A stretch of 64,000 nucleotides of DNA from Gemmatimonas phototrophica (GCA_945861755.1 CAMAVQ010000003.1:5689-69688); one strand, 5' to 3'. Positions 5,505-57,028 are shown, counted from the first letter of the stretch. The notes: a model not told the origin generated them from the sequence alone. Made by a program: numbers and translations.

Positions 5505-7078
5505 GCATCCTGCGAAGTGGGGGGGGCGGCGGCCATACGCGCCTTGATTTCGTCGAGTTTGAGATAGAGTTCTTCCCGGATGAACAACTCGAAGACGTCC
5601 CGATCCAGGTACCCGCGCTCCACCTCCTCTTTGAGGATGCGCAGCACCACTTCCCTGGGCATGGGTTTGGCCCGGTAGGGGCGGTCGTCGGCGCTGAGCG
5701 ATTCAAAGATGTCCACCAGCGCCAGGATACGCGCCTGCAGGCTGATCTGGTCGGCCTTCAGGCCCAAGGGGTAACCGCTGCCATCGAGTTTTTCGTGGTG
5801 GGCCCCGGCGATGGGGGGTACCTGGTTGAGCTTGCGGGTGAAGGGGATCTGGGCCAGCATTTTGATGCTCATCGAGGCGTGGTCGTTGATCTTCTGGCGC
5901 TCTTCCTGGGTCAGGCTGCCTTTGCGGATGCACAGGTTCTTCAGCTCGTTTTCGCTCAGGTAGGGGCGTTGCTGGCCGCCTTCCACATAGGTCTGGCCGG
6001 CAATTTGGTTTAATCTAACCAGATCTGCATCCTGCATGAACTCGCCCGGAGTGTTGGCCCGCTCCAGAAAGGCCAGGTCCTCAGCGAGGGCCTGCAGGCG
6101 GCGTTCGTATTCTTCGGCGAAATCGGCGGGCAGGGGTTGGCCGGTGACCTGCTTTTCGAGGCGTTCCAGTTGGATGGATTTCTCGATCAGCGCGAAACGG
6201 GTGCGCACCAGTTCGATGCGGTCGAAGAGGGTGTGTAACTTGGTGGGTTTGTCCACCACCCATTCGGGGGTGGTGATCTTGCCGATGTCGTGCATCCAGG
6301 CGGCGATGCGCAGCTCGTTGAGTTGGTCCTCGTCAAATTGCCGCGGCCCCAGAGGACCCTCCTGGCAGGTGTTGATGCTGTGGGCCACGGCCATGGCCAT
6401 CTCGGCCACCCGGCGGATATGGCCCCCGGTGTAGGGCGAACGCTCGTCGATGGCGGTGGCCATCACCTGGACAAAGGAGTCGAAGAGGGCTTCGGTCTCG
6501 GCGATCAGGCGGACATTGTTGATGGCCACCGCCGCCTGCGAGGCCAGCGACTGGATGAGGGATTGGTCCTGGGCCGAGAAAGGCACCACTTCCCCGGTGA
6601 GCGGGTGGAGGGGGTTGATCAGCTGGACCACCCCGATGATCTGGTCCTCGTGGTCCTTCATCGGCACCCCGAGGATGGAACGGGTGCGGTATCCGGTCAT
6701 GCGGTCGTAATTCTTGGGGCCCTCGAAGCGGTAGACGGGTTCGCTGTACACGTCCTCGATGTTGAGGGCCTGTCCGGTGACCGCCACGTATCCCGAGACG
6801 CTCTCCTTGTTGAGCGGCACCGGGGGCATATCCATCTTGCCGTGGGTGCCGCCGGCAAAACTCTTGAGGGTGTCGTTCTGGGCGATTTCGAAGGTGAGGT
6901 GGTCGCCTTTGAGCAGGAAGAGGGTGCCGGCGTCGGCGCGGGTGAATCTGCGGGCCTCTAGCAGGATGCGTTCGAGCAGCACGGTGAGGTTGTGCTCCAC
7001 CGAGAGGGCCACGCCGATTTCGTTGAGCCGGCGAAGGCGGTCCTCCAAGTCGAAGGCGGATTGGCTCTGATCAACCAT
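5501..7078 (-). CDS. GAF domain / HD-GYP domain protein (putative c-di-GMP phosphodiesterase)
   Basis: 525 aa. N-terminal GAF-like region (ADAGTLFLL...GVPMKDHEDQIIGVVQLIN), an HD motif (WMHDIGKITTP) and a GYP motif (HHEKLDGSGYP). Confidence 0.85.
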   Translation of the reverse strand: MVDQSQSAFDLEDRLRRLNEIGVALSVEHNLTVLLERILLEARRFTRADAGTLFLLKGDHLTFEIAQNDTLKSFAGGTHGKMDMPPVPLNKESVSGYVAVTGQALNIEDVYSEPVYRFEGPKNYDRMTGYRTRSILGVPMKDHEDQIIGVVQLINPLHPLTGEVVPFSAQDQSLIQSLASQAAVAINNVRLIAETEALFDSFVQVMATAIDERSPYTGGHIRRVAEMAMAVAHSINTCQEGPLGPRQFDEDQLNELRIAAWMHDIGKITTPEWVVDKPTKLHTLFDRIELVRTRFALIEKSIQLERLEKQVTGQPLPADFAEEYERRLQALAEDLAFLERANTPGEFMQDADLVRLNQIAGQTYVEGGQQRPYLSENELKNLCIRKGSLTQEERQKINDHASMSIKMLAQIPFTRKLNQVPPIAGAHHEKLDGSGYPLGLKADQISLQARILALVDIFESLSADDRPYRAKPMPREVVLRILKEEVERGYLDRDVFELFIREELYLKLDEIKARMAAAPPTSQDA

Positions 7079-15663: not shown

Positions 15664-16641
15664 ATGCCCCTCCCCCCGCAGCTACAGCGCGCCATCGAAC
15701 AGGAGACGGGCCGGCATCCTGCCAAGGCCCTGAGCCAGGCCGCTGCGGAACTTTCCGAGGTGTACCGCGCCGGACACCTGGCTAGCGGGGCTTTCCTCCC
15801 CTCCGAGCTGCACCGACTCGCGTACGCGGCTGTGCGGCTGCCGGCCACCTTTGCGGCGGTGCGTGCGGTGTTGGCGGAAGTGGGCCGTCGGTTGCCCGAC
15901 CGGCCACTGGCGAGCTTGCTCGACTTGGGCGCCGGCCCGGGCACAGCTGGCTGGGCAGCCGGGGAAGTCTTTGGCCAGTTGGAGTCGCTCACCCTGATCG
16001 AAAGGGACGCCGGGTTGATCGCGCTGGGCAAAGCGCTGGCGCGGGCCGGGGAACACGCCCTATTGGAACAGGCCCGCTGGGTGCAGGGGGATCTGCGCGT
16101 GCTGCCCGCTTTTGCGCCCTGCGATTTGGTGGTCAGTTCCTATGCGCTGGGAGAGTTGGGGGAGGAGGCTGCCAGTGCGGTGCTGCGGGCGGCCTGGGCG
16201 GCGACCTCTCAGGTGCTGGTGGTGGTGGAGCCGGGGACCATGCGGGGGTTTGCGCTTATCCGCCGGCTGCGCGATGAGCTGATCGGGGCCGGTGCCCACT
16301 TGATCGCCCCCTGTCCGCACCACGAGGACTGTCCCTTGCCGGCGGGAGACTGGTGCCATTTCTCGCAGCGCCTCGAACGCTCGCGGCTGCACCAGCGCCT
16401 CAAGGAGGTCGCCCTGGGATACGAAGACGAGAAGTTTTCGTACGTGGCAGTGGCCAGACATCCGCTCCAGCCCGCCCCGGCCCGCATCCTGCGTCACCCG
16501 CTGCGCCACGCCGGCCACACCGAATTGCAGTTGTGTACGCCGGCGGGCCTGCAGACCTTGACGGTGACGCGCAGCGACAAGGCAGGGTGGAAAGAGGCGA
16601 GGAAAGCGGAGTGGGGCGATGAGTGGCGGGGTGGGGGCTAA
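15664..16641 (+). CDS. Rsm22-like SAM-dependent methyltransferase
   Basis: 325 aa. SAM motif LLDLGAGPGTAGWAA and C-terminal Cys/His cluster APCPHHEDCPL...WCHF, typical of bacterial Rsm22-family proteins. Confidence 0.7.
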   Translation: MPLPPQLQRAIEQETGRHPAKALSQAAAELSEVYRAGHLASGAFLPSELHRLAYAAVRLPATFAAVRAVLAEVGRRLPDRPLASLLDLGAGPGTAGWAAGEVFGQLESLTLIERDAGLIALGKALARAGEHALLEQARWVQGDLRVLPAFAPCDLVVSSYALGELGEEAASAVLRAAWAATSQVLVVVEPGTMRGFALIRRLRDELIGAGAHLIAPCPHHEDCPLPAGDWCHFSQRLERSRLHQRLKEVALGYEDEKFSYVAVARHPLQPAPARILRHPLRHAGHTELQLCTPAGLQTLTVTRSDKAGWKEARKAEWGDEWRGGG

Positions 16642-19600
16642 CGCACCAGCGCCAGCCGCTGCACCGCCCCGAAGTTCCCCGCCTGTAGCCGGCAGAAGTA
16701 CACCCCCGAAGCCACCTCCCGTCCCTGCTCGTCGCGGCCGTCCCAGCCATAGGTGTACATCCCCGCCGGCAGCGAGGTGTCCAACAAGCGGCGCAGCGGG
16801 CGGCCCAGGGGGTCGTAGATGGTCAGGGCGGCGCGTCCTTCGCGGGGCAGCTCGAAAGGGAAGGTGGTCCGGGCATTGAAGGGGTTGGGGAAACCGGGAT
16901 GGAGGACCAGGTGTTTCGGCAGGGAGACGTCCCCTTCCTCGACAGGGGTCTGTTCGGGCGCTGCGTCGAGGAAGGGCTGCCAGGCTACCTGGCCCTTGAA
17001 GAGGGCGGCGATGGTGATGCTGTCGGTGGTGCCCCAGTAGTTGCCCTGGGCCGGCAGGATTTGGTCCGAGAGGTTTTCGACGGCAATGCGGTTGTCGAGG
17101 AAGGTGTTGCGGGTCAGGGTGGGCACTTGGGTGCCGCTGACCTTGAGGGCGGTGAGGTTGTGCTCGAAGGTGTTGCCCTCGACCTGGGGGGAAGAGGCCT
17201 GGGACTCGAAGCCCACCCCGGCGTTGCTAAAGGTGCTGGTGCGCACGGTGAATTTGGGAATGTTTTCGAGGCGCAGGCCGGCGTTGTTGAGGAAGTGGCT
17301 CATCTCGATGGCCCCGGAAGCGCCTTCGCGCAGCACCAATCCGGTGCCGATATTGTCGGCGAAGTTGGTGGTCCCCACCTCCACTATGGGCACGGCGGCC
17401 ACCACGGCCCCGTCGCCCAGGTTGCGCTCCACCTGCACCTGCTCAAAGGTGAGCCGCTCAAGGCCGCGGGCCCGCAGGCCCTCGTGCTGGTTGGCGCTGA
17501 GTTGGCTGTCGTGGATCTCTACCACCCCCTCCCAAGCCTCCAGGTCCAAGCCGTGCTGGGTGTTGCGCGTCGAACTGCTATTCCATAGCTCGATCTTCTG
17601 GCCGCGCCCGCCCACTGCTTTCAGACCGGAGCGCGGGTCCTTGGGGTCGAGCAGGCCGTTCTGCTCCAGGCGGAGGTTCACCGCCTCCAGGGAGGCGTTG
17701 CCCAGCGAGATGCCCTCCTGGCCGCATTGCTGCACGGTTACGTCGCGCAGCGAGAGCAGGCCGCCCCCCTGCACATAGATGGCCGGGGTGGTGAGGTGGA
17801 AAAAGGTGGTCCCGGTCACTTGGGCCGGCCCGTTGAGGGTCAGCGACAACCCGGCCAGGCCCTGCTGGATGCGGCCGCCTTCGAGCGCAAAGCTGCTGGT
17901 GGCAGAGACCTCGCCGCTGAACCCGTACCCGCAGCGTTCTATGGTAGCGTCGTGGACCTTCACCTGGGCGCCAGGGGCCAGGCGCACCCCGAACCACAGG
18001 TCCTGATTGCTGGTCTGGGCCACGGTGAAGGTGCCGCCCTCGGCGCTGAGTTTGCCTTCGACCACCAGTTCGGACAACGCTGGGCTCAGGCCACTGCCAC
18101 TGAGGTCTGCAGGGGCGAATTGCAGCTGGGCGTTGGAATCCACCACCAGCTCAGCACCGACGGGGATGATCAGATCCTGAAAGAGGGACTGCACGCCCGA
18201 AAAATGGGTGATGCCCGCTGGCAGCCGGCTGCGCACCAGCCCGTAGCGGGCATTGACCAGCTGGAGCTGGTCGGTGTCCAGGGGCTGGCCGTCCATCAGG
18301 AAAAGGCCGAGCCAGTCGTCGGCGCGCGGCACCGTGGCCGCTGATTCGCAGCGGATCTGGCCCTGCACCTGGAGGCCGCCGTAGACGATCAACTCGCAGC
18401 GGCCCGCGTCGAAACCAGTGCGCCGGCTGTCGGCAGCAGCAAAACGGATACGGGTGCCCTCGGCCAGGATGAGCTTGACCCCGGGGTCCACCACCACATC
18501 CCCGTCCAGCTGCACCGTCCCCGACCAGGTGGTGTCGGTGCTGATGTGGCCGGGCAACTTCTGGTGCAGGCGCACATCGCAGCGCATGCGCGTGCCCTCG
18601 CGGCGGATGTTTTCGAGGGCCATGCCCAGGGGCAGGTTGCGGCTGAAGCCGGTGTGGGCACTGAGGGAGGGGTTGGTGTCCCAGGCCAGGCGGGTGAAGC
18701 GCTGTCCGTCGAAGGGGTCGGTGGCATCGCCCTCGTTGCCGTGGTGGGCGGCGGTGTAGGCCTCGTCCTTGGCCCAGAAGTCGAGGTTGTCCCTGCCTCT
18801 GACTGTATCGGGTTGCCCGTCGGGGTAGCCCTTGTCCGCGTAGAGCCCGTCGGCGCAGACCAGGTCCACCTGCGGGTGGCGCTCCTCGTCGTTGTCGGCC
18901 CGCTCGTCCACGTGCCAGACCAAGAGGCCCTCGCCGGGAATGCTGCGGTTGTAGTAGCTGCTGGCGCGGCGGCGGTTTTCGAGGAGGAAGCACTCGTCGG
19001 CACTGAGGCGGATCTTGTAGATTTTATTTCCTATGGCCACGTCCTCGATGGCCAGGTCGGGTTGGTCCTGGGTGAGTTCGACGACCTCCACCCAGCCTAA
19101 CTTGGCCAGGGCCCAGGCGCAGAAAGCATTGGGGCCATCCTCCACCCCCCAGCCCTGGGTCCCTGCCGAGGTCATCAGGCACCACTTGCCCACCCCCGCA
19201 CTTTCCTCCGTCGGGTCGAGTTGGCCGGAGGCAGTCACCGAGGACTGGTCGAAGAGGTCGGGCAGGCCCAGCACGTGGCCGAACTCGTGGCACATGGAGG
19301 CGGCGGTGACGCTGAAGGTGTGGCCCCGCTGGGTGGTGCCGCCAAAACCAGAAAAGCGACTGCGGATGTGAATGGTCCCGCCTTTGGCCGCCGGGTCGTT
19401 GCTGATGAAGTCGGTGTCCAATCCCAGGGAGGCGTAGCCAGTGGCCCCGCTGATGAAGAAATTGCGGGGCACGGTGAGCAGGTTGATGAAGACCACATCC
19501 ACGTACCCGTCGTCATCGCCCGAATTGGGAAGCCCGTCCGGGCCGTCATTGTCGAAGCGGCCGAGGTCGGCGTCGCGGTCAGCTTGTACGAGAATTTGGC

Positions 19601-19943
19601 GGTTGAAGAGGCCAAAGTTGCCCTGGACCCCGGCGCTGGGGGCCACGTAGGCCGCAGCTGGCTGCAGGGAGGAGTAGCGCCGGGGCAGCACCTGGCCGGA
19701 GACCTGGATCTTGCCCCGCGACATCTCGCGGTAGAAGTGGGCGAAGCTGCCTGGCACGCCGAGATTGAACAGATCCGCAGCCCAGGGCGGGGCCTGGGTC
19801 TCGCCTTGGGCCTCGCCCTGGAACTTGGCGAAGATCACCAGGGCGTTGAGGGTGCCGCTGGTCTTGAGTGCAGAAGCCGGTGGCGGGGTCTGGGCTCCGG
19901 CTGCAAGGGCGGCCAGCAGGGCGCCCAGCAGCAGGGCTTTCAT
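16638..19943 (-). CDS. Secreted M6 (InhA-like) zinc metalloprotease with long beta-helix region and FlgD-Ig/Por-type C-terminal domain
   Basis: 1101 aa. Signal peptide MKALLLGALLAALAAGAQT and zinc motif HEFGHVLGLPDLFD. Paralogue of 2757..5504. C-terminus FPNPFN...WDGRDEQGREVASGVYFCRL. The start overlaps the stop of the 150-aa ORF (ATGA at 19940-19943). Confidence 0.85.
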   Translation of the reverse strand: MKALLLGALLAALAAGAQTPPPASALKTSGTLNALVIFAKFQGEAQGETQAPPWAADLFNLGVPGSFAHFYREMSRGKIQVSGQVLPRRYSSLQPAAAYVAPSAGVQGNFGLFNRQILVQADRDADLGRFDNDGPDGLPNSGDDDGYVDVVFINLLTVPRNFFISGATGYASLGLDTDFISNDPAAKGGTIHIRSRFSGFGGTTQRGHTFSVTAASMCHEFGHVLGLPDLFDQSSVTASGQLDPTEESAGVGKWCLMTSAGTQGWGVEDGPNAFCAWALAKLGWVEVVELTQDQPDLAIEDVAIGNKIYKIRLSADECFLLENRRRASSYYNRSIPGEGLLVWHVDERADNDEERHPQVDLVCADGLYADKGYPDGQPDTVRGRDNLDFWAKDEAYTAAHHGNEGDATDPFDGQRFTRLAWDTNPSLSAHTGFSRNLPLGMALENIRREGTRMRCDVRLHQKLPGHISTDTTWSGTVQLDGDVVVDPGVKLILAEGTRIRFAAADSRRTGFDAGRCELIVYGGLQVQGQIRCESAATVPRADDWLGLFLMDGQPLDTDQLQLVNARYGLVRSRLPAGITHFSGVQSLFQDLIIPVGAELVVDSNAQLQFAPADLSGSGLSPALSELVVEGKLSAEGGTFTVAQTSNQDLWFGVRLAPGAQVKVHDATIERCGYGFSGEVSATSSFALEGGRIQQGLAGLSLTLNGPAQVTGTTFFHLTTPAIYVQGGGLLSLRDVTVQQCGQEGISLGNASLEAVNLRLEQNGLLDPKDPRSGLKAVGGRGQKIELWNSSSTRNTQHGLDLEAWEGVVEIHDSQLSANQHEGLRARGLERLTFEQVQVERNLGDGAVVAAVPIVEVGTTNFADNIGTGLVLREGASGAIEMSHFLNNAGLRLENIPKFTVRTSTFSNAGVGFESQASSPQVEGNTFEHNLTALKVSGTQVPTLTRNTFLDNRIAVENLSDQILPAQGNYWGTTDSITIAALFKGQVAWQPFLDAAPEQTPVEEGDVSLPKHLVLHPGFPNPFNARTTFPFELPREGRAALTIYDPLGRPLRRLLDTSLPAGMYTYGWDGRDEQGREVASGVYFCRLQAGNFGAVQRLALVR

Positions 19944-20392
19944 GCCAGCAGGTCGAAACTAATGGCGGAGAACTGCAGCGCAAAACCGCCCTGGGTGCGG
20001 CGGGGATTGGCACTGGCCTGCAACAGGCGGCTCTGGTTGTCCGATTGCTGTAGGTGGTGACGGAGATTTAGCTGGCTGGCCTGGAGCAGGTGCAGGGCCG
20101 GGGGGTCCTGGTTGTTGCCGATCAGGCCGGCGGTGAGTGGGCTGGTGGTTTTGGTCTGGGCAGCCAGACTGGAGAGGAGGCCCTCGCCGCTGGTCGGCAG
20201 GTCGAAGAGCCCAGGGCTGGGATCGGCCTGAGCCGCCGAAGAGGTCCCGCTCACCCCCGGTGGCCCGCCGGTGGCCCGCAGCGAAGCGATGCCCAGCCCG
20301 TCTTTGACGCGGGCGGTCCCGGCGTTATGGTTGAGCCGCTTGATGAAGCGGGGGCCGGCGAAGGACTCGTCTTGTTGGAGCGGGGTCACCAT
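19940..20392 (-). CDS. Hypothetical 150-aa protein between pafA and the M6 protease
   Basis: ATG at 20390-20392, 6 nt after the pafA stop. The stop overlaps the M6 start. Hand-counted third-position G/C is 15/17 (20341-20390) and 17/20 (20161-20220) in this frame, clearly higher than the other two phases. No signal peptide and no recognisable motif; Gln/Ser/Gly/Leu-rich. Confidence 0.55.
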   Translation of the reverse strand: MVTPLQQDESFAGPRFIKRLNHNAGTARVKDGLGIASLRATGGPPGVSGTSSAAQADPSPGLFDLPTSGEGLLSSLAAQTKTTSPLTAGLIGNNQDPPALHLLQASQLNLRHHLQQSDNQSRLLQASANPRRTQGGFALQFSAISFDLLA

Positions 20393-20398
20393 GGGCGA

Positions 20399-21811
20399 TC
20401 AGTCAGGGGAAGGGCGCTGAAATTCGCGGACGAATTCCTCTAGCTCAAGATCGTAGGTCTGGAAGGGATCGTCCAGGTTGAGATATTTCTCGTCCTCGAC
20501 GTAGATCGAATCCCACTCGATCACGTAGCGGGCCTTGTGGTTGGTCAGCGAGCGCATGACCGAGGAGCGGGCCCGGGCGCGGGTGTCCTGCGGGGGGGTG
20601 ACCATGGCCAGATTCACCCGCTCATCGTCCACTACCTTCTTGGTCATGCCGCGGCTGCGCAGGTCAAAGTAGAGCCCCTTGGCGGGGTTGAGATTGTGGT
20701 ATTCCAGATCCAGGCTCTGCACCCAGGGATCCTGCCAGTCGAGGCCCTCGGCCTCGATGAAGGATTGCAGCAGCCACTTCTTGGCCACCCAGTCGAGGCG
20801 GTCGATCAGGCTCATGGGATCGACCGCCAGGGCCTCCAGCACAAAGCGCCATTCGCGCAGCACCCAGTCGATCTCTGGCTCCCGGCCGCGCAGGTGGCGT
20901 TCGGCCAGTTCCAGGTAAGTCAACTGCAGGTCGATGGCGGTGGTGTGGCGCCCGTCCTCCAACTTTATCACCCACTGGTAGGTTGGATCGCGGGAGATGT
21001 CGCGGATGGCATCCACCGCATTGTCCAGGCGGATATCGGGCCAGATCTCCTGCTCGAGTAATTCGATGAGCACCGCGGTGGTCCCCACTTTGAGGGCAGT
21101 GACGTATTCGGACATGTTGGAGTCGCCCACCAGCAGGTGCAGCCGGCGGTACAGGCCCCAGTCGGCCAGCGGCTCGTCGCGGGTGTTGATGATGGCCCGG
21201 CTGAACTGGATCCACTGGTAGATCTCGGTGACGATATGGTCGGCCCGCTGGGAGAGCTGAAAGTCGATGCGCGGGGTTTCGGGGCTGCCCGAATCGAAGA
21301 CATCGTTGTGGCAGCCCACCCGGCCGGCCCCGGCAAAGATCTGGCGGGTGACAAAGAAAGGCAGCAGGGCCGGCAGCAGTCGCTGAGAGAAGGGGACTTC
21401 TCGGCGCACCAGATAGTTCTCGTGGCAGCCGAAGGTGGCCCCGGTGTAGTGGTCGATGTTGTTCTTGAAGAAGGAGGCGGTCTCGGCCAAGCCCAGCTGG
21501 CTGAGGGCGCGCTGCACAATGAGTTCGCCGGCCCGGTCGGAGGCCACCAGGTCGAAGAGGCCGCGGCATTCGGGGGTGGCAAATTCGATGTGCCCCATGT
21601 CGAGGTAAAGCCGCCCGCCGTTGAAGAGAAAGCCGCCGTTGCCCGGCGGCTCGTCGCGGCCCCGGTAATGGGTGTCGACAAATCCCAACCCTTCGCGGCC
21701 GAAGACCCGGTCCTTGGCCCGCGCCGAGATCAGGTCGGGGCTGTGGAAGGGGTCGCCCTCGGGGGGCATACAACCGTATTCGATTTCGAGTCCGAAGATG
21801 CGGTTGCGCAT
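20399..21811 (-). CDS. pafA: Pup(UBact)-protein ligase PafA
   Basis: 470 aa. FGLEIEYG, FLFNGGRLYLDMGHIEFATPEC and FGCHENYL motifs of the Pup ligase/deamidase family. It lacks the Dop-type N-terminal insert and sits downstream of prcA, as pafA does in mycobacteria. Confidence 0.88.
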   Translation of the reverse strand: MRNRIFGLEIEYGCMPPEGDPFHSPDLISARAKDRVFGREGLGFVDTHYRGRDEPPGNGGFLFNGGRLYLDMGHIEFATPECRGLFDLVASDRAGELIVQRALSQLGLAETASFFKNNIDHYTGATFGCHENYLVRREVPFSQRLLPALLPFFVTRQIFAGAGRVGCHNDVFDSGSPETPRIDFQLSQRADHIVTEIYQWIQFSRAIINTRDEPLADWGLYRRLHLLVGDSNMSEYVTALKVGTTAVLIELLEQEIWPDIRLDNAVDAIRDISRDPTYQWVIKLEDGRHTTAIDLQLTYLELAERHLRGREPEIDWVLREWRFVLEALAVDPMSLIDRLDWVAKKWLLQSFIEAEGLDWQDPWVQSLDLEYHNLNPAKGLYFDLRSRGMTKKVVDDERVNLAMVTPPQDTRARARSSVMRSLTNHKARYVIEWDSIYVEDEKYLNLDDPFQTYDLELEEFVREFQRPSPD

Positions 21812-21825
21812 GGCCAGCCCTCGCT

Positions 21826-22587
21826 TCAGGAGGTGAAGGGCGCCAAGGTCTCCTCCAGGGAGGCCGCCGGCAGAAAGCGAAACTTGGTGCGGGTGGGCAG
21901 GGTGCGGTCTAACACGGCGGCGTCGAAGCGGCGGGTGCGCACGGCCTTGCCGAGAAAGGTGCGCAACTCCTCTTCGTCCGGCTCGCCTTCTGCCTCGCGC
22001 TCGGCCAGCAGGGCACCCAGGCCCCAGGCCTCCAGGGCTCGGCGCAGCGCTTCCTTGAGGGAGAGGGAGGCGGGGTCCAGGTCGGCCAGGCGGGCAGTGA
22101 TGGCCTCTTCGCTCTTCCGGGTGCCGGCCACGGCCGCCGCTTTGCCGGCACTGGCAAAAGACCCGTCGGGCTCGAGGGTGTAGAAACGCTCCTCGGCGTG
22201 GATCGGGTCCAGCTCGGCGACCATGACCCGGGCAATATAGGGGGAGCGGAGGATCTCGTCGAAGGCGGTTTTCATCAAAGGCCCCAGGCCCAGGTGTACC
22301 AGGCGCTGCAGGGAGACATCGCTGGCCGACAGGTTGAAGGCCTCCAGGTGGGCGATGTCGATGACCACCTTGCGCAGCTTTTCCAGGTCCGCCGGATGGC
22401 CGATGGCGGCAAAGGAGATGTTGTTGTAGACCTCAAAGATTTTGCGCGGCCCCGGCGTGGTGGTCAAGAGCAGCACCCCGTCGGCGTACCCCAGGCCCAC
22501 CACCGGACTGGCGCCGCGCAGCTGGTCTTCTAGATACTCGCGGCGGTTGCGGATGGCTTCTACCCAGCGGTAGGGGTCTTCGAGCAT
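21826..22587 (-). CDS. prcA: 20S proteasome alpha subunit
   Basis: 253 aa. Ntn-hydrolase-fold pattern without an N-terminal Thr after processing (SPVVGLGYADGVLLLT...IFEVYNNISFAAIGH). Sits directly after prcB. Confidence 0.85.
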   Translation of the reverse strand: MLEDPYRWVEAIRNRREYLEDQLRGASPVVGLGYADGVLLLTTTPGPRKIFEVYNNISFAAIGHPADLEKLRKVVIDIAHLEAFNLSASDVSLQRLVHLGLGPLMKTAFDEILRSPYIARVMVAELDPIHAEERFYTLEPDGSFASAGKAAAVAGTRKSEEAITARLADLDPASLSLKEALRRALEAWGLGALLAEREAEGEPDEEELRTFLGKAVRTRRFDAAVLDRTLPTRTKFRFLPAASLEETLAPFTS

Positions 22588-22597
22588 GGGGCGCCTT

Positions 22598-23368
22598 TCA
22601 GCCGGAATTCTTGCCGAGGGCCTGGTAATGGGCCTCCAGGTCGGCTTCGGGGATAGAGGTGATGCCCGTCCGGTCCAGGCGCATCACCTGGGGGAAGATC
22701 CGGGCGCGGGAGCGATACCCGCCGGTGGCGGTGTCGTATTCGGCGGCGGTCTCCAGCAATTTGAGGGCGAGGGCGACGGCGGCCGGCTCGTCGAGGCTGG
22801 CCAGGGGTTCCGGCCCCCAGCGGTCCTGGAAGTAGACTGCGCCCCGGATGGTGGGCGAGCCAGAACCGGTGGCGCAAAAATCCACCGACTCAAATTGGGC
22901 CCCCAGCAGGTCGTAGAAGAAGATCCGGCCCCCTTCCCGGGGGTCGAAGGCGGCGAGGATGGGCACCACCGCGCCGATGCCCTGCATGGCCAGGCCCAGG
23001 TTTTCCCGCAGCAGGCGGGACAGGGTGCGCAGCTTGCCGTCCAGGCTCAATTCTTGTAACTGAGAGCGGCGGTAATGTTGGAAAGAGATTTCGAGCAGGC
23101 GGGCGATCTCGTAGCCGATGGCCGGCGAGCCCGAAATGGCCAATACCACGCTGTCGTCGATGGTCAGCACTTTGTCGGCCCGGTCATAGACCACGGTGTT
23201 GCCCATGGTGGCGCGTCGGTCGCCGGCCACCAGCACCCCATCCCGGTAGCGCAGGGCCAGGATGGTGGTGCCCTCGATGGTTTCGAGGTGTTCCGGGTGC
23301 TTGAGGGATGCGAAAGGAGCGGGCAAGAGCTGGCCGCGTTCCCGCAGGAGGGTGAAAAAATCCTCCAT
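22598..23368 (-). CDS. prcB: 20S proteasome beta subunit (with propeptide)
   Basis: 256 aa. The propeptide ends ...HLETIEG and is followed by TTILALRYRDGVLVAGDRRATMG (catalytic Thr1 context). GSGS motif (CATGSGSP). Collinear similarity to the mycobacterial PrcB sequence as I recall it. Confidence 0.9.
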   Translation of the reverse strand: MEDFFTLLRERGQLLPAPFASLKHPEHLETIEGTTILALRYRDGVLVAGDRRATMGNTVVYDRADKVLTIDDSVVLAISGSPAIGYEIARLLEISFQHYRRSQLQELSLDGKLRTLSRLLRENLGLAMQGIGAVVPILAAFDPREGGRIFFYDLLGAQFESVDFCATGSGSPTIRGAVYFQDRWGPEPLASLDEPAAVALALKLLETAAEYDTATGGYRSRARIFPQVMRLDRTGITSIPEADLEAHYQALGKNSG

Positions 23369-23371
23369 GTC

Positions 23372-23572
23372 CTACTGGCCCGTGCGCTGGCGGTACCGCC
23401 GGGCCTGGTCCGGGTCGACCCTGCGCATGCGGCGCATCAGCTCGTCGGTGCTGGGGCGCTCGACCTTGGGGCGGCGCGGACCTTCGTCATCGCCGCCGCC
23501 TTCGCCCGGTTCGGCGGGGCTGGTGGGGCGGGGGGCGCGGTCGCGCAGTTGGAAGAAGTGATCGTCAGCCAT
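23372..23572 (-). CDS. pup: Prokaryotic ubiquitin-like modifier, UBact-type Pup homologue
   Basis: 66 aa and apparently disordered: Gly/Pro/Asp/Glu/Arg-rich with a helical C-terminal part (STDELMRRMRRVDPDQARRYRQ). Ends in RTGQ directly before the stop. Located between dop and prcB. Confidence 0.85.
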   Translation of the reverse strand: MADDHFFQLRDRAPRPTSPAEPGEGGGDDEGPRRPKVERPSTDELMRRMRRVDPDQARRYRQRTGQ

Positions 23573-23583
23573 GGGGTGCCTCC

Positions 23584-25113
23584 TTAGGCAGAGGTCGGCA
23601 ATTTTTCGAGCAGGGCCTCGACGCTGGGAGCGCTGTCCAGCACCTGATTATAATACGCCGCAGCTTCCGCGTCCACACACGCTTTGAGGTCCACCACGCG
23701 GGTGCGGCCGTTGACGGAAAATTCGATGCTGTCCCAGTTGAGCGAGCGCACCGCCGCGCCGAACCGCTCCAGGCAGCGGCCGCGAAAATAGGCGCGGGTA
23801 TCGGCCGGCGGCCGGGTCATGCCGCGCAGGACTTCCTCCTCGCCCACCAGCCGGGTCATCTGCCCCTGGGCTTCGAGCAACAGATACAGGCCCTCCTCGG
23901 GATCGATGTTGCTGTATTCCAGATCCTGGCTCTGCAGCCAGACGCGGTGGTCCGGGTTTTCCCAATCCAGCCCCTCGGCCTGGGCAAAGGTGTCCAGCAG
24001 CCACTTTTTGGTGACCCAGTCGCAGCGGCCCAGCAGGTCGAGGGGGTCGTTCCCCAACTTTTCGAGGGCTTCCTGCCACTGGGCCAGCACCCAGTCGGTC
24101 TCCGGGTCGCGGCCCTGGGCCAGGCGCCCGGCCGCTTCCAGATAAGAACGCTGGATTTCGAGGGCCGAGACGGTTTTTCCCCCAGCCAGGGGCACTGCCC
24201 ACTGGTGGGAGGGGTCGCGGGAGAGGGTTTTGAGGGCGGCCACCGGATCTGCCAATTCCCAGCGGGGCAGGGCCCCGGCCTCTAAAAGGTCTAGCACCAG
24301 GGCGAGGGCACCCACTTTGAGGGCGGTGGCCCACTCCGACATGTTGGCGTCGCCGATGATCAGGTGCAGGCGGCGGTACTGGTCGGCATTGGCGTGCGGC
24401 TCGTCGCGGGTGTTGACCAGCGGCCGGCGGGTCATGGTATCGACGCTGGCCAGGGTCTCGAAGAAATCGGCCCGCTGCGAGAGCTGGTAGGTGGAGGCCC
24501 GGGCCTGGGGATCGCACTCCACTCCCACCTTGCCGGCCCCGGCGTAGAGCTGGCGGGTGACCAGAAAGGGTATCAGGCCCTCGATCACCTGCTGGAAGGG
24601 CAGTTGGCGGGGCAGGAGGAAGTTTTCGTGGCAGCCGTAGCTGTGTTCGGCGAAATCGGTGTTGTTCTTGTAGAGGCGCACCAAGCCGCCGCCGGCGCGG
24701 GTGGCGCTGCGCCGGGCGGCGCAGTGCAGCAGGATGCGCTCGCCGGCCCGGTCCAGGGCCACCAGGTCGAAGAGGCTGTGGCACTCTGGGGTGGAGTACT
24801 CGGGGTGGGTGTGGTCGTTGTAGAGCCGGGCCCCGTTGCTGATGATCAGGTCGCTCTTGAGGTCCTTTAAGGGGATTTTGCGCTGGCGGTCGCGTTGCAG
24901 GTGGACGGTCTCGTCCTGGTCGTTGAGCAGCTCGTCCACCTCAAAGCCGCGCATGTCGCGGCGGGGATTCTCCAACTGGTAGTCCCAGCGGGCGACGAAG
25001 TCCTCCACGAGGTAGCAGCGGATCAACTCCATGGACTCGACCACCACGTCCATGTCGTCGACCCCGTCCACCTGGATGCCGTATTCGGTCTCCAAGCCAA
25101 AAAGCCGCCGCAT
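23584..25113 (-). CDS. dop: Pup(UBact) deamidase/depupylase Dop
   Basis: Starts at MRRLFGLETEYG (ATG 25111-25113, 5 nt after the mpa stop). RWDYQLENPRRDMRGFE resembles the Dop-specific N-terminal segment. NGARLYNDHTHPEYSTPEC and YGCHENFL. It is the longer paralogue (509 aa) and sits between mpa and pup. Confidence 0.88.
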   Translation of the reverse strand: MRRLFGLETEYGIQVDGVDDMDVVVESMELIRCYLVEDFVARWDYQLENPRRDMRGFEVDELLNDQDETVHLQRDRQRKIPLKDLKSDLIISNGARLYNDHTHPEYSTPECHSLFDLVALDRAGERILLHCAARRSATRAGGGLVRLYKNNTDFAEHSYGCHENFLLPRQLPFQQVIEGLIPFLVTRQLYAGAGKVGVECDPQARASTYQLSQRADFFETLASVDTMTRRPLVNTRDEPHANADQYRRLHLIIGDANMSEWATALKVGALALVLDLLEAGALPRWELADPVAALKTLSRDPSHQWAVPLAGGKTVSALEIQRSYLEAAGRLAQGRDPETDWVLAQWQEALEKLGNDPLDLLGRCDWVTKKWLLDTFAQAEGLDWENPDHRVWLQSQDLEYSNIDPEEGLYLLLEAQGQMTRLVGEEEVLRGMTRPPADTRAYFRGRCLERFGAAVRSLNWDSIEFSVNGRTRVVDLKACVDAEAAAYYNQVLDSAPSVEALLEKLPTSA

Positions 25114-25118
25114 GGGGA

Positions 25119-26840
25119 TCAGACGATCCTTCCGGACTGCTTTTCCGGGCGCTGTTCCTCGGGGCGCACCGGGGTGACCCGCACCACGTTTTCGGGGTCG
25201 TAGTCGATGAGTTTGAGCCAATCCTCCATCGCGTCGGTGGGCGGGAAGATCTCGTTCTCGCGGTACTCGGCGCGCACCGCCTCCTCTAGGTCCTGGAGGC
25301 GCAGGCCGGCCTGGGTGTCGCTCCCGGCGATGGCCCGTTTGATGGCCGACTCCTTGGCCCGCTGCACGATGGAGGAGATCAGCGCGCCGCTGATCAGGTC
25401 GCCCCAGTAGAGCACTTCGTGGCGGCCGCTGCGCAGGGTCACTTCGAGGAAGCGGTGGTCCTGGCTGCGGGCAAAGAGGGCCTTAAGGGCCCCGTCCACC
25501 AGCGCCTGGCGGGCCGCCTCGGTGTTGCCGGCGCGGGCGACTTCCTCGGCGTCGATGGGCAACTCGGGCGTCAGGTAGATCTCGAGGATGGCGCGCGAGG
25601 CGACCTGGTCGGGCCGGCGCACCTTGATCTTGCGGTCGATGCGGCCGGGGCGCAGGATGGCCGGGTCGATCAGGTCGTGGCGATTGGAGGCCAGGATGAT
25701 GACCACGTCCTGCAGTGACTCAATGCCGTCCATCTCGGTGCAGAACATCGGCACCACGGTGTTGGAGATATTGTGGGTGCGCATGGAACGGCGGGTGCCC
25801 AGGATCGACTCGGCCTCGTCGATGAAGATGAAGGGCAGGTACCCTTCCTTGCGTTTCTGGCGGGCCTGGGAGAAGATCTCCCGCACCATGCGCTCGGTCT
25901 CGCCCAGCCACATGTTGAGGATCTCCGGCCCCTTGATGTGCATGAAGTATTCTTTGAGTTCCAGCCCTTCCTGTTGGCGCAGGTGTTGTACCAGGTTGTA
26001 GGCAGTGGCCTTGCCGATGAGGGTCTTGCCGCAGCCGGGGGGCCCGTGGAGCAGGAAACCCTTGGGGGTGGAGTACTGGAACTTGGCGAAGAGTTCGGGG
26101 TGGAGGGCCGGCAGTTCGATGGTATCGCGGATGGCCTGGATGGCTTCCTCCTGGCCGCCGATCTTCGACCAGGGCATGGGCGGGATCTCTTCGAGGAAGT
26201 GCTCCCTGCGCTCGCGGGGTTGTAACCTTTCGAGGGCCACCTTGAAGGTGGGGTCCACCCGCACCTCGTCACCCACCTTGAGGTCTACCTCTTGCAGGTC
26301 CGCCGAGCGCACCAGGACCAGGTCTTGGGTGCCATGGGCCTGGCCGATGCGCAGCCGGCCTCCGTCCAGCAAATCGGCGATCTTGGCCACCGGGCCGGTG
26401 GGGTTGTAGTCGAGGGAGCCCACCACCGCATAGGCCTCGTTGATCAGCACCCGGCTGCCTACCTTGAGCTGGGCCAGGTCCACACGTGGGTCCACGTTGG
26501 CAAAGTACTCAGTGCCACCCACAAAGAGGTCGGCGATGCCCTCCCTGGGCGAGCCTAGGAAGATGCCGATGCGGTTGGCCGGGGCGGTGACCTTTTCGAG
26601 AGCGGCCTCCAGTTCGATCAGGGCGTGGCGGGCTTCCTGGAAGGTCAGTTCGCGCTCCAAGAGCAGACGCCGCAGCTGGTAGAGCAGCGGCCGCACCGGG
26701 TCGCGGTCGGGCAGCAGCAGCAGGGCCTGGTCCACCAACTCCAGGGGGCGGTCGTCTGGTTCGTACTCGACGGCCTCGTCCACGGGCTCGAAATCGTCTT
26801 CCTCGCCGCGGTCGCGGTAGTCGCGGTCCTTTTTGCTCAT
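25119..26840 (-). CDS. mpa: Proteasome-associated AAA+ ATPase (Mpa/ARC)
   Basis: N-terminal coiled coil, OB-like region (VGSRVLINEAYAVV, VGDEVRVDP), Walker A GPPGCGKT and Walker B FIFIDEAES. ATG at 26840 (MSKKDRDY) is preferred; a GTG alternative at 26873 would overlap lepB. The C-terminus is ...EKQSGRIV. Confidence 0.88.
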   Translation of the reverse strand: MSKKDRDYRDRGEEDDFEPVDEAVEYEPDDRPLELVDQALLLLPDRDPVRPLLYQLRRLLLERELTFQEARHALIELEAALEKVTAPANRIGIFLGSPREGIADLFVGGTEYFANVDPRVDLAQLKVGSRVLINEAYAVVGSLDYNPTGPVAKIADLLDGGRLRIGQAHGTQDLVLVRSADLQEVDLKVGDEVRVDPTFKVALERLQPRERREHFLEEIPPMPWSKIGGQEEAIQAIRDTIELPALHPELFAKFQYSTPKGFLLHGPPGCGKTLIGKATAYNLVQHLRQQEGLELKEYFMHIKGPEILNMWLGETERMVREIFSQARQKRKEGYLPFIFIDEAESILGTRRSMRTHNISNTVVPMFCTEMDGIESLQDVVIILASNRHDLIDPAILRPGRIDRKIKVRRPDQVASRAILEIYLTPELPIDAEEVARAGNTEAARQALVDGALKALFARSQDHRFLEVTLRSGRHEVLYWGDLISGALISSIVQRAKESAIKRAIAGSDTQAGLRLQDLEEAVRAEYRENEIFPPTDAMEDWLKLIDYDPENVVRVTPVRPEEQRPEKQSGRIV

Positions 26841-26856
26841 AGGATAGGGACTCTCT

Positions 26857-27564
26857 TCAGATGATGACCCCACCCAGGCGGCTGTAGCGCACCCGGGCGG
26901 GCAGCCGCCAGAGGAAGGTGCCGGCCAGCGCGGGGATGGAGGCCAGGCCGGTATAGTAAGGGGGACGGGTGTCCGATTCCCACGACCAGTAGATGAGCAT
27001 GGCCTTGCCCTTGACCAGTTCCCTGGACACGGCCCCGAAATAGCGGCTGTCGGCGCTGTTGTCCCGGTTGTCGCCCATCATAAAGAAATGGCCGGGCGGC
27101 ACGGTGAAGGGGCCGAAATTGTCGCGTGGCTGGACCGTGGCCGGGTAGGTCTCGGAGTCGGTGTGTTTGGACAGGGGCGGGTTGGGAGAGGGCTTGCCGT
27201 CGACGTAGAGCACCTTGTCGATGACCTGGAGCTTTTGGCCGCCCACGGCCACGCAGCGTTTGATCAGGTCGCGGTCCGGATCGGTGGGGGAACGGAAGAT
27301 GACGATATCCCCCGGTTGGGGATCGCGCAGTCCAGGCAGGCGGAACAGGGTGTAGTCGGCCATGGGGATGTCGACGGGGGCCCCGTAGACGAATTTGTTG
27401 GCCAGCAGATAGTCGCCCACCAGCAGGGTGTCCTCCATGGAACCCGAAGGGATGTAGAAGGCCTGGACCACGGTGGTGCGGATGAAAAGGGCCAGGCCCA
27501 CGGCGATCAGGAGGGAGGAGGTGTACTCCTTGACGGTGGACTTGGGCGTAGGTTGACCGGGCAT
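26857..27564 (-). CDS. lepB: Signal peptidase I
   Basis: 235 aa from ATG 27562-27564. TM helix SSLLIAVGLALFI, catalytic Ser box IPSGSMEDTL, Lys box DLIKRCVAVGGQ and GDNRDNSADSRYFG. The long upstream extension of the ORF (to 28182) is discounted. Confidence 0.9.
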   Translation of the reverse strand: MPGQPTPKSTVKEYTSSLLIAVGLALFIRTTVVQAFYIPSGSMEDTLLVGDYLLANKFVYGAPVDIPMADYTLFRLPGLRDPQPGDIVIFRSPTDPDRDLIKRCVAVGGQKLQVIDKVLYVDGKPSPNPPLSKHTDSETYPATVQPRDNFGPFTVPPGHFFMMGDNRDNSADSRYFGAVSRELVKGKAMLIYWSWESDTRPPYYTGLASIPALAGTFLWRLPARVRYSRLGGVII

Positions 27565-27609
27565 AGGTAATTCTCTGGGGTTTGGAGAGGCGATGGCAAT
27601 GATGGTAGG

Positions 27610-27638
27610 AGTATAATAAACGGGCAGGGGGTTGTAAA
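27610..27638 (-). promoter_or_regulatory. Candidate sigma70-type promoter for the lepB-mpa-dop-pup-prcBA-pafA block (TTTACA-17 nt-TATACT)
   Basis: Minus-strand read: tttaca accccctgcccgtttat tatact. The -35 and -10 each match consensus 5/6, with an exact 17-nt spacer. It ends about 45 nt upstream of the lepB ATG. Confidence 0.5.
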
Positions 27639-27665: not shown

Positions 27666-27694
27666 TTGTGAAAGCCGGGGGACGGTGATATAAT
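27666..27694 (+). promoter_or_regulatory. Candidate sigma70-type promoter for the tandem MBL genes (TTGTGA-17 nt-TATAAT)
   Basis: ttgtga aagccgggggacggtga tataat. Consensus -10 and a 17-nt spacer. It ends about 38 nt upstream of the ATG at 27733. Confidence 0.5.
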
Positions 27695-27732
27695 TGTAGC
27701 AACTTGCCGCGAGAGGGTGGATTTTGGCAGCG

Positions 27733-28605
27733 ATGCAGATCTCTTTTTGGGGAGTGAGGGGTTCCTTCCCGGTGTGCCGAGCGCAGAGCCTGCGCTACGG
27801 GGGCAATACCCCCTGCCTGGAGATCGATGCTGGTGAGGCGGTGATTCTCATCGACGCCGGCACCGGCATCCGGGCTGCCGGCCAGGCGCTGGTGGAGCGG
27901 GGGGTGAAGGAGATTCACCTGCTCCTGAGCCACGCCCACTGGGACCACATTCAGGGCTTCCCCTATTTTGCCCCCCTGCACCAGCCCGGAACCTGCATCC
28001 GCATCTATTCTCTTCGCCGCCCGGGCACGGCCCTGGGGACCATCTTCGCCGACCAGCAGCGCCACCCCTTTTTCCCGGTGGCCCTCGACCAACAGGCCGC
28101 CCGGCTGGAGTTTGTGGAGCTGGATGAGGGACAGGTGGTGGAGATCGGGGATACCCAGGTGTCCAGTCGGCGGCTCAATCACCCCAGTGTGACCGGAGGG
28201 TTTCGCCTCGAAAGGCAGGGCCGGACCTTCGCCTACCTGTCCGACGTGGACCTCTACACCAAGTTGTTGCTGGGCGAGGGGCTGCAGACCCCCAGCGCCG
28301 CGGAGCGCCAGCAGCGGCTGGCGGGGCTATTGGCGGGTGTCTGTGCGCTGGCGCACGGCGCTGATCTGGCGGTCTGCGATACCTTTTTTAGGCCCGAGGA
28401 CTACGAGCCCAGTTGGGGTCACAGCCGTCCCGAGGACGCCTTGCGCCTGGCCAGGGACACCGGCATCGGGCAGCTGGTGCTCTTCCATCACGAACCCCAC
28501 CGCAGCGACGAGGAAATCGACGAGTTGCTGGCCCACTACCGCCGGCAGGCCGGGGGGGGGCTGGAAGTGCTCGCTGCCGCCGAAGGGTTGGCGCTGAGCC
28601 TGTGA
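27733..28605 (+). CDS. MBL-fold metallo-hydrolase (paralogue 1)
   Basis: MQISFWGVRGSFP start, HxHxDH motif (SHAHWDHIQGFPYF) and C-terminal LVLFHHEPHRSD. ATG 27733 is taken in preference to the ORF-track start at 27724. Confidence 0.8.
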   Translation: MQISFWGVRGSFPVCRAQSLRYGGNTPCLEIDAGEAVILIDAGTGIRAAGQALVERGVKEIHLLLSHAHWDHIQGFPYFAPLHQPGTCIRIYSLRRPGTALGTIFADQQRHPFFPVALDQQAARLEFVELDEGQVVEIGDTQVSSRRLNHPSVTGGFRLERQGRTFAYLSDVDLYTKLLLGEGLQTPSAAERQQRLAGLLAGVCALAHGADLAVCDTFFRPEDYEPSWGHSRPEDALRLARDTGIGQLVLFHHEPHRSDEEIDELLAHYRRQAGGGLEVLAAAEGLALSL

Positions 28606-54741: not shown

Positions 54742-55728
54742 ATGCGCTTTTCGCTTTTGGTGTTCATGCTCGCCTTCGCCACCCCTGTCCTGCCCGGGGA
54801 AAAGGTGCTGGGTATCACGCTCTCCACCCACGGCAGCGGTCAGGACTGGGGCAGTGACCAGATCGGGACTACCTTGCAGGATATGCGCCAGGTGGGCGCC
54901 AACTGGGTGGCCATCCATCCCTATGCCCGCATCTCCGGCGAGGGCCAGGTCAGCTTCCGCGACTTCGACCCAGCCAGTCCCCCCGCGTACCTGATCCGGC
55001 CTATCCAGGAAGCCCACCAGCGGGGCCTGAAGCTGTGCATCATCCCCCATCTGGCCTATTGGGGCTCCCCCTTCTCCTGGAAGGGGGATATCGCCTTTGA
55101 GCGGCCCGAGGATTGGGAGCGCTTCTGGCGGGATTATTCTTATTGGATCACCCGGCTGGCCGCCGCCTGCCAGGGGGCCGATGGTTTTGTGGTGGGCACC
55201 GAACTGGACCGCACCCTGGATCACGAGAACCAGTGGCGGGCCCTCATCGCCCAGGTGCGCAAAGTCACGCTCGCGCCGCTGACGTACGCGGCCAACTGGA
55301 CCGACTACACTCGGGTGCCCTTCTGGGACGCCCTCGATGTGGTGGGCATCCAGGCCTATTTTCCCCTGGTTGACCACCTGGACCCCACCCAGGAGGAGGT
55401 CGAGGCTGGCTGGGCATTGCGCGTGGGTGAAATGCGCGCCTATTCCCAGCAGACCGGCAAATACATCCTCTTCACTGAACTGGGCTACAACCAGTCCTAC
55501 CTGGCGCCTTTGGAGCCGTGGAACTACCAGGTGGACGGGGAGGATGCCCGCCCCATCCAGGAGACCTGTATGCGCACCGCACTGGAGGCAGTGGCCGGCG
55601 AATCGAGCATCGTCGGGGCCTTTCTGTGGAAGTGGTTCCCCAACCCCCGTCCAGTGGGCCGGGATTTTCAACTGGCCACTCCGGCCATCGAGCAGATCAT
55701 CTCCAGCATCTGGTTGCGCGGCCGATGA
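54742..55728 (+). CDS. Secreted clan GH-A-like TIM-barrel glycoside hydrolase
   Basis: ATG 54742 (MRFSLLVFMLAFATPVLPG signal). Candidate catalytic Glu pair in VVGTELD and LFTELGYN. The stop overlaps the tolC-like start (ATGA 55725-55728). Exact family uncertain. Confidence 0.6.
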   Translation: MRFSLLVFMLAFATPVLPGEKVLGITLSTHGSGQDWGSDQIGTTLQDMRQVGANWVAIHPYARISGEGQVSFRDFDPASPPAYLIRPIQEAHQRGLKLCIIPHLAYWGSPFSWKGDIAFERPEDWERFWRDYSYWITRLAAACQGADGFVVGTELDRTLDHENQWRALIAQVRKVTLAPLTYAANWTDYTRVPFWDALDVVGIQAYFPLVDHLDPTQEEVEAGWALRVGEMRAYSQQTGKYILFTELGYNQSYLAPLEPWNYQVDGEDARPIQETCMRTALEAVAGESSIVGAFLWKWFPNPRPVGRDFQLATPAIEQIISSIWLRGR

Positions 55729-57023: not shown

Positions 57024-57028
57024 GACCG

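Follow-up and report, generated by a model that had tools for sequence, protein, structure and literature searches.

We analysed a stretch of DNA of 64,000 nucleotides (nt), hereafter the window (GCA_945861755.1, CAMAVQ010000003.1:5689-69688, recorded under the name Gemmatimonas phototrophica), which contains an operon for the protein tag UBact and a bacterial proteasome. UBact is the Gram-negative counterpart of the actinobacterial modifier Pup. Nine genes follow each other in one direction on the minus strand at positions 16638-27564: lepB, mpa, dop, UBact, prcB, prcA, pafA, orf150, and a gene for an M6-like metalloprotease (Table 1). Counted from lepB towards the protease gene, the spacings are 16, 5, 11, 3, 10, 14 and 6 nt, and the last two genes overlap by 4 nt (ATGA). 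An initial annotation, made from the sequence alone, had proposed this co-directional string; all nine open reading frames are indeed present on the minus strand, and the coordinates reproduce each of the gaps and the overlap that it reported. It also placed the end of the string at 27638. This position is the edge of the -35 element of a promoter-like site upstream of lepB and not the end of lepB itself. Independent gene calls in public contigs of the same organism yield the identical nine genes. Searches with Pfam and NCBIfam profiles back every family named in the annotation, while orf150 matches no model of either collection. An Rfam scan of the whole window found no RNA family.

Table 1. 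Genes and promoter candidates of the UBact-proteasome locus (positions in the window; aa, amino acids)
Feature	Position	Strand	Evidence
lepB, signal peptidase I, 235 aa, first in the string	26857-27564	-	Pfam, NCBIfam, motifs
mpa/arc-type proteasomal AAA ATPase, 573 aa	25119-26840	-	Pfam, NCBIfam, motifs
dop-type deamidase/depupylase homologue, 509 aa	23584-25113	-	Pfam, NCBIfam, PDB matches, motifs
UBact modifier, 66 aa	23372-23572	-	PF20513, NF033388
prcB, 20S proteasome beta subunit, 256 aa	22598-23368	-	PF00227, TIGR03690
prcA, 20S proteasome alpha subunit, 253 aa	21826-22587	-	PF00227, TIGR03691
pafA-type UBact ligase homologue, 470 aa	20399-21811	-	Pup_ligase, alignment to C. glutamicum PafA
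orf150, small, mostly disordered protein (predicted)	19940-20392	-	GC3, homologues, AlphaFold
M6-like zinc metalloprotease, predicted secreted, 1101 aa	16638-19943	-	PF05547, Beta_helix, NosD, TIGR04183
Sigma-70-like promoter candidate TTTACA-17-TATACT, 46 nt before the lepB ATG	27610..27638	-	consensus scan, conservation
Candidate internal promoter TGGACG-17-TATAAT in the 3' end of dop	23647..23675	-	consensus scan, codon usage, conservation

Related loci were collected with an alignment of 18 PafA sequences. This search retrieved 80 loci from species-representative genomes, in which the window proteins were placed by tblastn (the loci are denoted below by L and a number).

Judging by the matched families and their order, the six genes from mpa to pafA form a complete UBact-type tagging and proteasome operon with the canonical arrangement, in a host of the Gram-negative type. 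The initial annotation of the core as a complete Pup/UBact-proteasome operon therefore holds: all six core families and the models specific to UBact are matched. The modifier reaches 77.1 bits with PF20513 (cut-off 27.8; 8.6e-22) and 81.8 bits with NF033388 (cut-off 35; 2.9e-23). Such a tag is characterized as a short protein that ends with G-[EQ] and is ligated via its terminal Glu (PMC2588565); the modifier of the window is within the length range (about 50-90 aa) and ends in ...RRYRQRTGQ. Its gene has a strong ribosome-binding site (AAGGAGG) and is flanked by dop and prcB; related loci show the same neighbours wherever these genes are retained. Across 60+ related loci the C-terminal RYRQRTG[QE] does not vary. 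The last codon (23372-23374) varies by lineage: it encodes Gln in most of the clade in which lepB adjoins the operon, whereas the sister Latescibacterota clade, Poribacteria and most Verrucomicrobiota have a codon for Glu (loci L007-L086). The need for deamidation by Dop would thus differ between these lineages.

The proteasomal ATPase matches AAA (PF00004, 4.5e-31), Prot_ATP_ID_OB_N (9.6e-18) and Prot_ATP_ID_OB_C (8.2e-13), the two OB models being PF17758 and PF16450, and all three matches are over the cut-off; with TIGR03689 it scores 468.5 bits, which is under the cut-off of 504.75. Its translation contains a Walker A motif GPPGCGKT and a Walker B motif FIDEAE. The protein ends in ...SGRIV (25119-25148), and essentially all ATPases of the UBact loci sampled (L007-L078) end with G-x-[VI]-[VI]. 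In the actinobacterial system, in contrast, the ATPase ends with GQYL, the motif that opens the gate of the mycobacterial 20S particle (PMC8142254).

The modifier and the 20S genes lie between two paralogues of the Pup-ligase family. The third gene of the string has a Pup_ligase match of 6.9e-159 and scores 470 bits with the Dop model TIGR03688 (cut-off 492.3) against 364.7 bits with the PafA model. Among PDB sequences Dop chains are its best matches (409 bits, against 248 bits for PafA). Dop proteins are recognized by a Dop loop some 40 residues long and by a His of the V-D-H-A type immediately after the catalytic Asp (PMC7947786). Relative to the pafA gene, the window protein has about 30 extra residues between GLETEYG and NGARLY, at the place of the Dop loop before the catalytic Asp, and its motif N-D-H-T-H-P-E-Y-S-T-P has His directly after this Asp. 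By these features it is Dop-like, a close homologue outside the actinobacterial equivalog.

The seventh gene is less distinct. Its Pup_ligase match is 1.8e-135, and its overall scores are similar for the two subfamilies or slightly higher for Dop (PDB: 288 bits for Dop and 264 for PafA; NCBIfam: 358.7 and 349.8 bits, both under the cut-offs), so overall scores cannot separate it from Dop. Local features point to PafA. The Dop-loop insertion is absent, and His occupies the alpha-loop position typical of PafA (criteria of PMC7947786). The motif L-D-M-G-H aligns with L-D-V-G-S-H of PafA and is one residue shorter; the following A-T is PafA-like and the next P is Dop-like. The alignment to C. glutamicum PafA reaches the C-terminus of the latter (residue 462), and the tail aligns with PafA only. 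A ligase role of this protein is likely on these grounds.

Both 20S subunits are recognizable. PrcB matches PF00227 (1.8e-27) and scores 170 bits with TIGR03690, under the equivalog cut-off; it has a propeptide of 33 residues, G/TTILAL places Thr1 at residue 34, and Asp17 and Lys33 are in register (AGD, ADK). PrcA matches PF00227 with 28.8 bits (cut-off 22.4; 1.2e-06) and TIGR03691 with 2.3e-19, again under the equivalog cut-off. All six core proteins score lower than the actinobacterial equivalog cut-offs of NCBIfam, as is expected for the UBact branch.

We infer the biochemistry of the system from homology. UBact with a C-terminal Gln would be deamidated to Glu by the Dop homologue, and the PafA homologue would use ATP to link this Glu to lysines of target proteins. 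A hexamer of Mpa would then bind the tag, unfold the target and feed it into the PrcA/PrcB 20S core with its catalytic Thr1, Asp17 and Lys33. The Dop homologue may also be able to strip the tags.

The PafA protein is 97% identical to a protein of a metagenome-assembled genome (MAG) of Candidatus Latescibacteria; the matching locus is SICG01000019.1 of isolate Baikal-deep-G198, a MAG from deep Lake Baikal, and contigs are also present in ERZ27280223, ERZ27280287 and ERR3719144. Since the closest PafA belongs to a Latescibacterota MAG, the contig is not actinobacterial. The window also encodes OEP/TolC, HlyD and AcrB proteins (55518-61242), and several of its proteins carry Por/T9SS sorting domains, i.e., domains for the type IX secretion system (T9SS). 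These genes bear out the suggestion of the initial annotation, based on a TolC/RND pump and sorting domains, that the cell is of the Gram-negative type. According to these sequence similarities, the host is an uncultured Latescibacterota bacterium with such an envelope and not an actinobacterium. One more protein predicted to be at the surface or secreted is encoded at 38661-43265 (minus strand); it has 1534 aa, NHL/beta-propeller repeats, immunoglobulin-like (Ig) domains of the ASH/HYDIN type and a T9SS-type C-terminal domain.

The gene order mpa-dop-UBact-prcB-prcA-pafA is common to two Latescibacterota clades, Poribacteria and some Verrucomicrobiota. The flanking genes are distributed differently. 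In the clade whose PafA is at least 71% identical to that of the window, all 20 informative loci have lepB immediately upstream of mpa and in the same orientation; one additional metagenomic locus has the same junction. None of about 33 informative loci outside this clade has lepB next to mpa. The distance from the lepB stop to the mpa start is 40 nt or less wherever lepB is present. Of the 25 informative loci of the clade, 23 have an orthologue of the M6 protease gene downstream of pafA and in the same orientation. In the loci of the sister Latescibacterota clade, Poribacteria and Verrucomicrobiota the core is present without adjoining lepB or M6 genes. The initial annotation had asked whether the adjacency of lepB, orf150 and M6 is conserved in any related genome. 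It is kept within one Latescibacterota clade, yet such conservation does not establish a function. Clearly unrelated neighbours are conserved to a similar degree, namely gatB, which is convergent and follows the protease gene, and the genes of a GFO oxidoreductase or a metallo-beta-lactamase upstream.

The sister clade (L035-L049, L058; e.g., positions 227-4656 of L039) has a conserved gene for a 345-aa protein without a Pfam match in the position of lepB, preceded by genes for a GFO oxidoreductase and for a T9SS-sorted protein with no other recognizable domain. We considered the 345-aa gene as a degenerate lepB and rejected this idea, as the protein shows neither similarity to LepB nor a Pfam match. 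The survey also revealed solitary PafA homologues (about 52% identity), whose surroundings lack mpa, dop, UBact and proteasome genes to a distance of 10 kb. They occur in many Verrucomicrobiota (Udaeobacter, Chthoniobacterales), in one Poribacteria locus (L080) and in one locus labelled Dormiibacterota; the full list is L061, L064, L066, L067, L070-L073, L079-L082, L084 and L085.

LepB itself appears to be an ordinary signal peptidase I. It matches Peptidase_S26 (PF10502, 3.4e-49) and scores 158.4 bits with the equivalog model TIGR02227 (cut-off 47). Like bacterial LepB proteins of family S26A, it has a single hydrophobic membrane segment near the N-terminus as well as the catalytic Ser and Lys boxes, represented by SGSM (SGSMEDTL), KRCVAVGG and GDNRDNSADSRY. 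In E. coli lepB belongs to the classical arrangement lepA-lepB-rnc-era. That arrangement is not seen here, where lepB is the promoter-proximal gene of a proteasome operon. One might suppose that the operon copy is a specialized paralogue that serves the M6 protease or other T9SS cargo, with the general signal peptidase encoded elsewhere. It lies in the same direction and the same string as a protease that depends on Sec and T9SS, and dedicated S26 paralogues are known in other organisms, e.g., those described by TraF-type models, which give weak matches here. However, the score with the standard signal peptidase I model is high, the scores with specialized S26 families are far under their cut-offs, and lepB stays beside mpa in L008 and L051, where there is no adjacent M6 gene. 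We thus regard a specialized LepB as very improbable.

A promoter candidate upstream of lepB, which the initial annotation had noticed, agrees with the sigma-70 consensus in 10 of 12 positions, although this consensus may not be that of the phylum. Comparison of the relatives strengthens the candidate. The -35 hexamer TTTACA and the block TTTnnTATACT are retained in eight loci whose intergenic DNA is otherwise unalignable, and 18 of the 20 clade loci scanned have the -10 block in front of lepB. It is found even in a sub-clade with an oxidoreductase gene that ends just 58 nt upstream. Since the footprinted promoter coincides with the lepB-first layout, a lepB-led transcription unit, as predicted from these signals, is a conserved feature of the clade. 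Back to back with it, at 27666-27694 on the plus strand, lies a divergent promoter candidate TTGTGA-17-TATAAT with a TG extension, for a gene of the metallo-beta-lactamase fold (27724-28605, plus strand); this promoter is also conserved across relatives.

A scan of all junctions of the string on the coding strand found no terminator-like sites, in accordance with the initial annotation, which saw no obvious internal terminator. In some relatives a hairpin directly follows pafA. At the far end of the string, the M6 gene and a convergent gene for an Rsm22-like methyltransferase (15664-16641, plus strand) overlap by 4 nt at their stops (16638-16641), which leaves no space for a terminator between them. 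Within the operon, an internal promoter in the 3' end of dop is likely, judging by sequence conservation and codon choice. Its -10 element ends 75 nt before the UBact ATG and is spelled by the rare codons TAT TAT AAT, the probability of which is about 0.007 under the codon usage of the operon. Many relatives retain this spelling, including the sister clade. Such a promoter would define a sub-operon UBact-prcB-prcA-pafA and would raise the expression of UBact, the 20S subunits and PafA.

The last protein of the string begins with a predicted Sec signal peptide (MKALLLGALLAALAAGAQ), followed by the M6 catalytic domain, a right-handed beta-helix region and a type-A T9SS C-terminal domain. The supporting matches are PF05547 (30.2 bits, cut-off 22), Beta_helix (3.2e-21) and NosD (6.5e-11) and, for the sorting domain, TIGR04183 (a borderline 23.4 bits against 23) and FlgD_ig (29.6 bits against 27). 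The sole match to PDB sequences is that of the C-terminal Ig-like domain to FlgD. The zinc motif HEFGHVLGLPDL at residue 219 is intact and of the HEXXHXXGXXD type. Shared with InhA/peptidase M6 and with the T9SS M6-like proteins of the FCB group are the motif HEFGHxLGLPD, the Pfam M6 match, the signal peptide and the T9SS type-A domain. The window protease differs by its large size and long beta-helix region, and it scores under the cut-off of TIGR03296 (87.5 bits against 110.8). With the model of "inactivated" T9SS M6-like proteins it reaches 44 bits against 600, i.e., does not match, and unlike these proteins it has an intact active-site motif. A PADLOC scan of orf150, the M6 protease and LepB gave no defence-system match.

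The M6 family is present in the window in more than one copy. A second M6-like T9SS protease (915 aa, HEFGHALGLPDL) is encoded at 2757-5504; in the catalytic part it shares 48% identity with the operon protease. A GAF-HD domain gene immediately precedes its gene (the pair occupies 2757-7078 on the minus strand), and the same pair is kept in L008. An M6 match 8 kb downstream of the operon in that locus was considered as the operon protease and rejected, since it is orthologous to the second M6 gene and has the GAF-HD partner beside it.

The junction between pafA and the M6 gene is plastic. The distance from the pafA stop to the start of the protease gene is 25 nt in L027 and L028 and 71 nt in L012. 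In one sub-clade orf150 lies between the two genes, and in other loci the gap is 1.2-7 kb of DNA with a low GC content at third codon positions (GC3). These inserts encode the type II restriction enzymes Tsp45I and NgoMIV, N6/N4 and C5 DNA methylases, and a HerA-like ATPase. The junction is an insertion hotspot for foreign genes of low GC3 in L019, L024, L025, L026, L029 and L031. The M6 protease is absent downstream of pafA in L008, L051 and L087; in L087 (6786-10881), transposases of insertion sequences (IS) occupy its position.

Between pafA and the protease gene of the window is orf150. Its GC3 of 0.82 is of the coding type. The motif LRATGGPP is invariant among its homologues, and the codons vary synonymously, which indicates selection at the protein level and rules out that LRATGGPP is a nucleotide element. 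By these criteria orf150 is a real gene. Its family is tiny: we found 86 homologues, and all those with a named source are hypothetical proteins from Latescibacteria; there are 58 representatives among 1.84 billion proteins. Among the surveyed loci orf150 is confined to one sub-clade and is absent from about half of the clade that has lepB. An AlphaFold model built from an alignment of 36 sequences has pLDDT 58.8 and pTM 0.24, too poor for a fold search; it predicts a mostly disordered protein with a C-terminal helix.

It is tempting to assign orf150 to the UBact pathway as a lineage-specific accessory, i.e., an adaptor, a regulator or a decoy substrate that would bind Mpa, PafA/Dop or the 20S core by linear motifs. 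The gene immediately follows pafA in all loci that carry it but L013, and it stays beside pafA in L008 and L087, which have no M6 protease there. The family occurs only with this type of operon, LRATGGPP is under protein-level selection, and the predicted disorder with a C-terminal helix resembles that of Pup-like tags. On the other hand, orf150 is missing from most UBact systems and from about half of its own clade, hence UBact systems do not require it. In L013 it accompanies the M6 gene, about 2.5 kb from pafA, and its 4-nt overlap with the M6 start fits translational coupling to the protease equally well. No homology to known factors was found in Pfam, NCBIfam or PADLOC, and there is no usable fold. 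Therefore we consider the accessory role of orf150 rather unlikely.

Taking the conservation data together, we think that lepB and the M6 protease gene are probably lineage-specific passengers, fixed by descent on a vertically inherited UBact-proteasome operon. Several observations lead us to this reading. First, gatB and the GFO oxidoreductase or metallo-beta-lactamase genes are conserved alongside. Second, the association has a single origin, and no other UBact lineage in the sample shows it. Third, the M6 family is multi-copy. Fourth, the pafA-M6 junction is plastic, with insertions, protease losses and, in some relatives, hairpins. In one Latescibacterota clade the core would thus have become part of a longer unit with a conserved promoter before lepB, originally running into the T9SS M6-like metalloprotease. 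LepB would cleave Sec signal peptides in general, including that of the M6 protease, and the protease would work extracellularly, with neither of them involved in tagging.

The initial annotation had proposed a different meaning of the same layout, namely a coordinated regulon of intracellular and extracellular proteolysis. According to this proposal, one promoter would co-express the tagging and degradation machine, the signal peptidase that exported proteins require for maturation, and the extracellular protease. The conserved lepB-first architecture and its promoter agree with it, and so do the short distances from pafA to the M6 gene in L027, L028 and L012 and the tight junctions after pafA in the window. 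The M6 protease has a Sec signal peptide and hence needs LepB. However, the extended layout is found in one clade only; neither gene adjoins the core in the sister Latescibacterota clade, in Poribacteria or in Verrucomicrobiota. Unrelated neighbours are about as conserved as lepB and M6, and a joint proteolysis regulon thus does not follow from adjacency by itself. In several genomes the M6 gene has been lost or split off by foreign genes, and the hairpins after pafA in some relatives and the likely promoter within dop also speak against the proposal. Moreover, LepB is a general enzyme, and its co-expression with one particular substrate is little specific. The single-promoter regulon therefore appears improbable to us. 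A physiological extension of the proposal, in which the cell under amino-acid or nitrogen limitation recycles its own proteins and digests external ones at the same time, finds a parallel in Mycobacterium smegmatis, where the Pup-proteasome system matters in nitrogen starvation (Elharar 2014, as cited in PMC7947786). We give it little credence for the same reasons.

Some facts fit the passenger reading less well. Every sampled genome of the clade keeps a tight lepB-mpa junction, even where LepB identity is as low as 63%. Because the promoter is upstream of lepB, expression of lepB and of mpa and dop would be obligatorily linked, and this could reflect selection. The M6 gene stays downstream of pafA despite several kilobases of inserted foreign DNA. 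Finally, we infer transcription from promoter calls that rest on the sigma-70 consensus, and the rules of this phylum may be different. With these points in mind, one can imagine the extended string as a functional unit peculiar to the lineage, in which the UBact-proteasome, LepB and the T9SS protease would scavenge inside and outside the cell and orf150 would be a new cofactor, regulator or decoy; in our estimation there is only a small chance of this. The passenger reading, a joint regulon and an accessory role of orf150 are not mutually exclusive.

Lehmann and co-authors reportedly described UBact loci in 2017 in Nitrospirae, Verrucomicrobia, Armatimonadetes, Nitrospinae, Planctomycetes and candidate phyla. 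To our knowledge, Latescibacterota (FCB group) are not among the phyla named in that description. Public records already annotate these Latescibacterota genes automatically. Sporadic Pup-proteasome neighbourhoods outside Actinobacteria have been noted since 2008 (Iyer et al. 2008, PMC2588565; the term "signal peptidase" is absent from this paper), and a phylogenetic study of 2020 also lists sporadic occurrences in several phyla (PMC7947786).

The window locus shares with the UBact loci of Gram-negative phyla the same six genes in the same order, a modifier that fits the curated models and has the RTG[QE] end, the two Pup-ligase paralogues around the modifier and the 20S genes, and a host with an outer membrane. 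It differs in that lepB heads the operon and that orf150 and a T9SS M6 protease follow it. With the actinobacterial Pup system (Mycobacterium tuberculosis) it has in common the double-OB ATPase, a Dop homologue that bears the Dop loop, a probable ligase of the PafA type, and a beta subunit with Thr1. The C-terminal Gln of the tag likewise implies deamidation before ligation, and solved Dop and PafA structures are the top PDB matches. Unlike in that system, the tag is UBact with RTGQ and not Pup with GGQ, and a pafBC-like gene is missing; it is orf150 that follows pafA here. The lepB-core-orf150-M6 layout was found in no other surveyed lineage and in none of the open-access literature searched, where coverage of UBact and of Latescibacteria proteasomes was thin. 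The locus thus belongs to the known UBact kind and has a lineage-specific operon layout for which we found no description.

Knowledge of UBact systems comes almost entirely from sequence, so that conserved accessory genes are leads to their biology. The locus offers three such handles: a lepB-led unit with a footprinted promoter, a lineage-restricted protein, predicted to be disordered, that is tied to pafA, and an ATPase tail without the mycobacterial gate-opening motif. A true coupling of the operon to secretion and extracellular proteolysis would connect bacterial proteasomes with nutrient scavenging in a phylum that is abundant and uncultured. Without such a coupling, the locus would be a clean example of adjacency conserved through descent alone.

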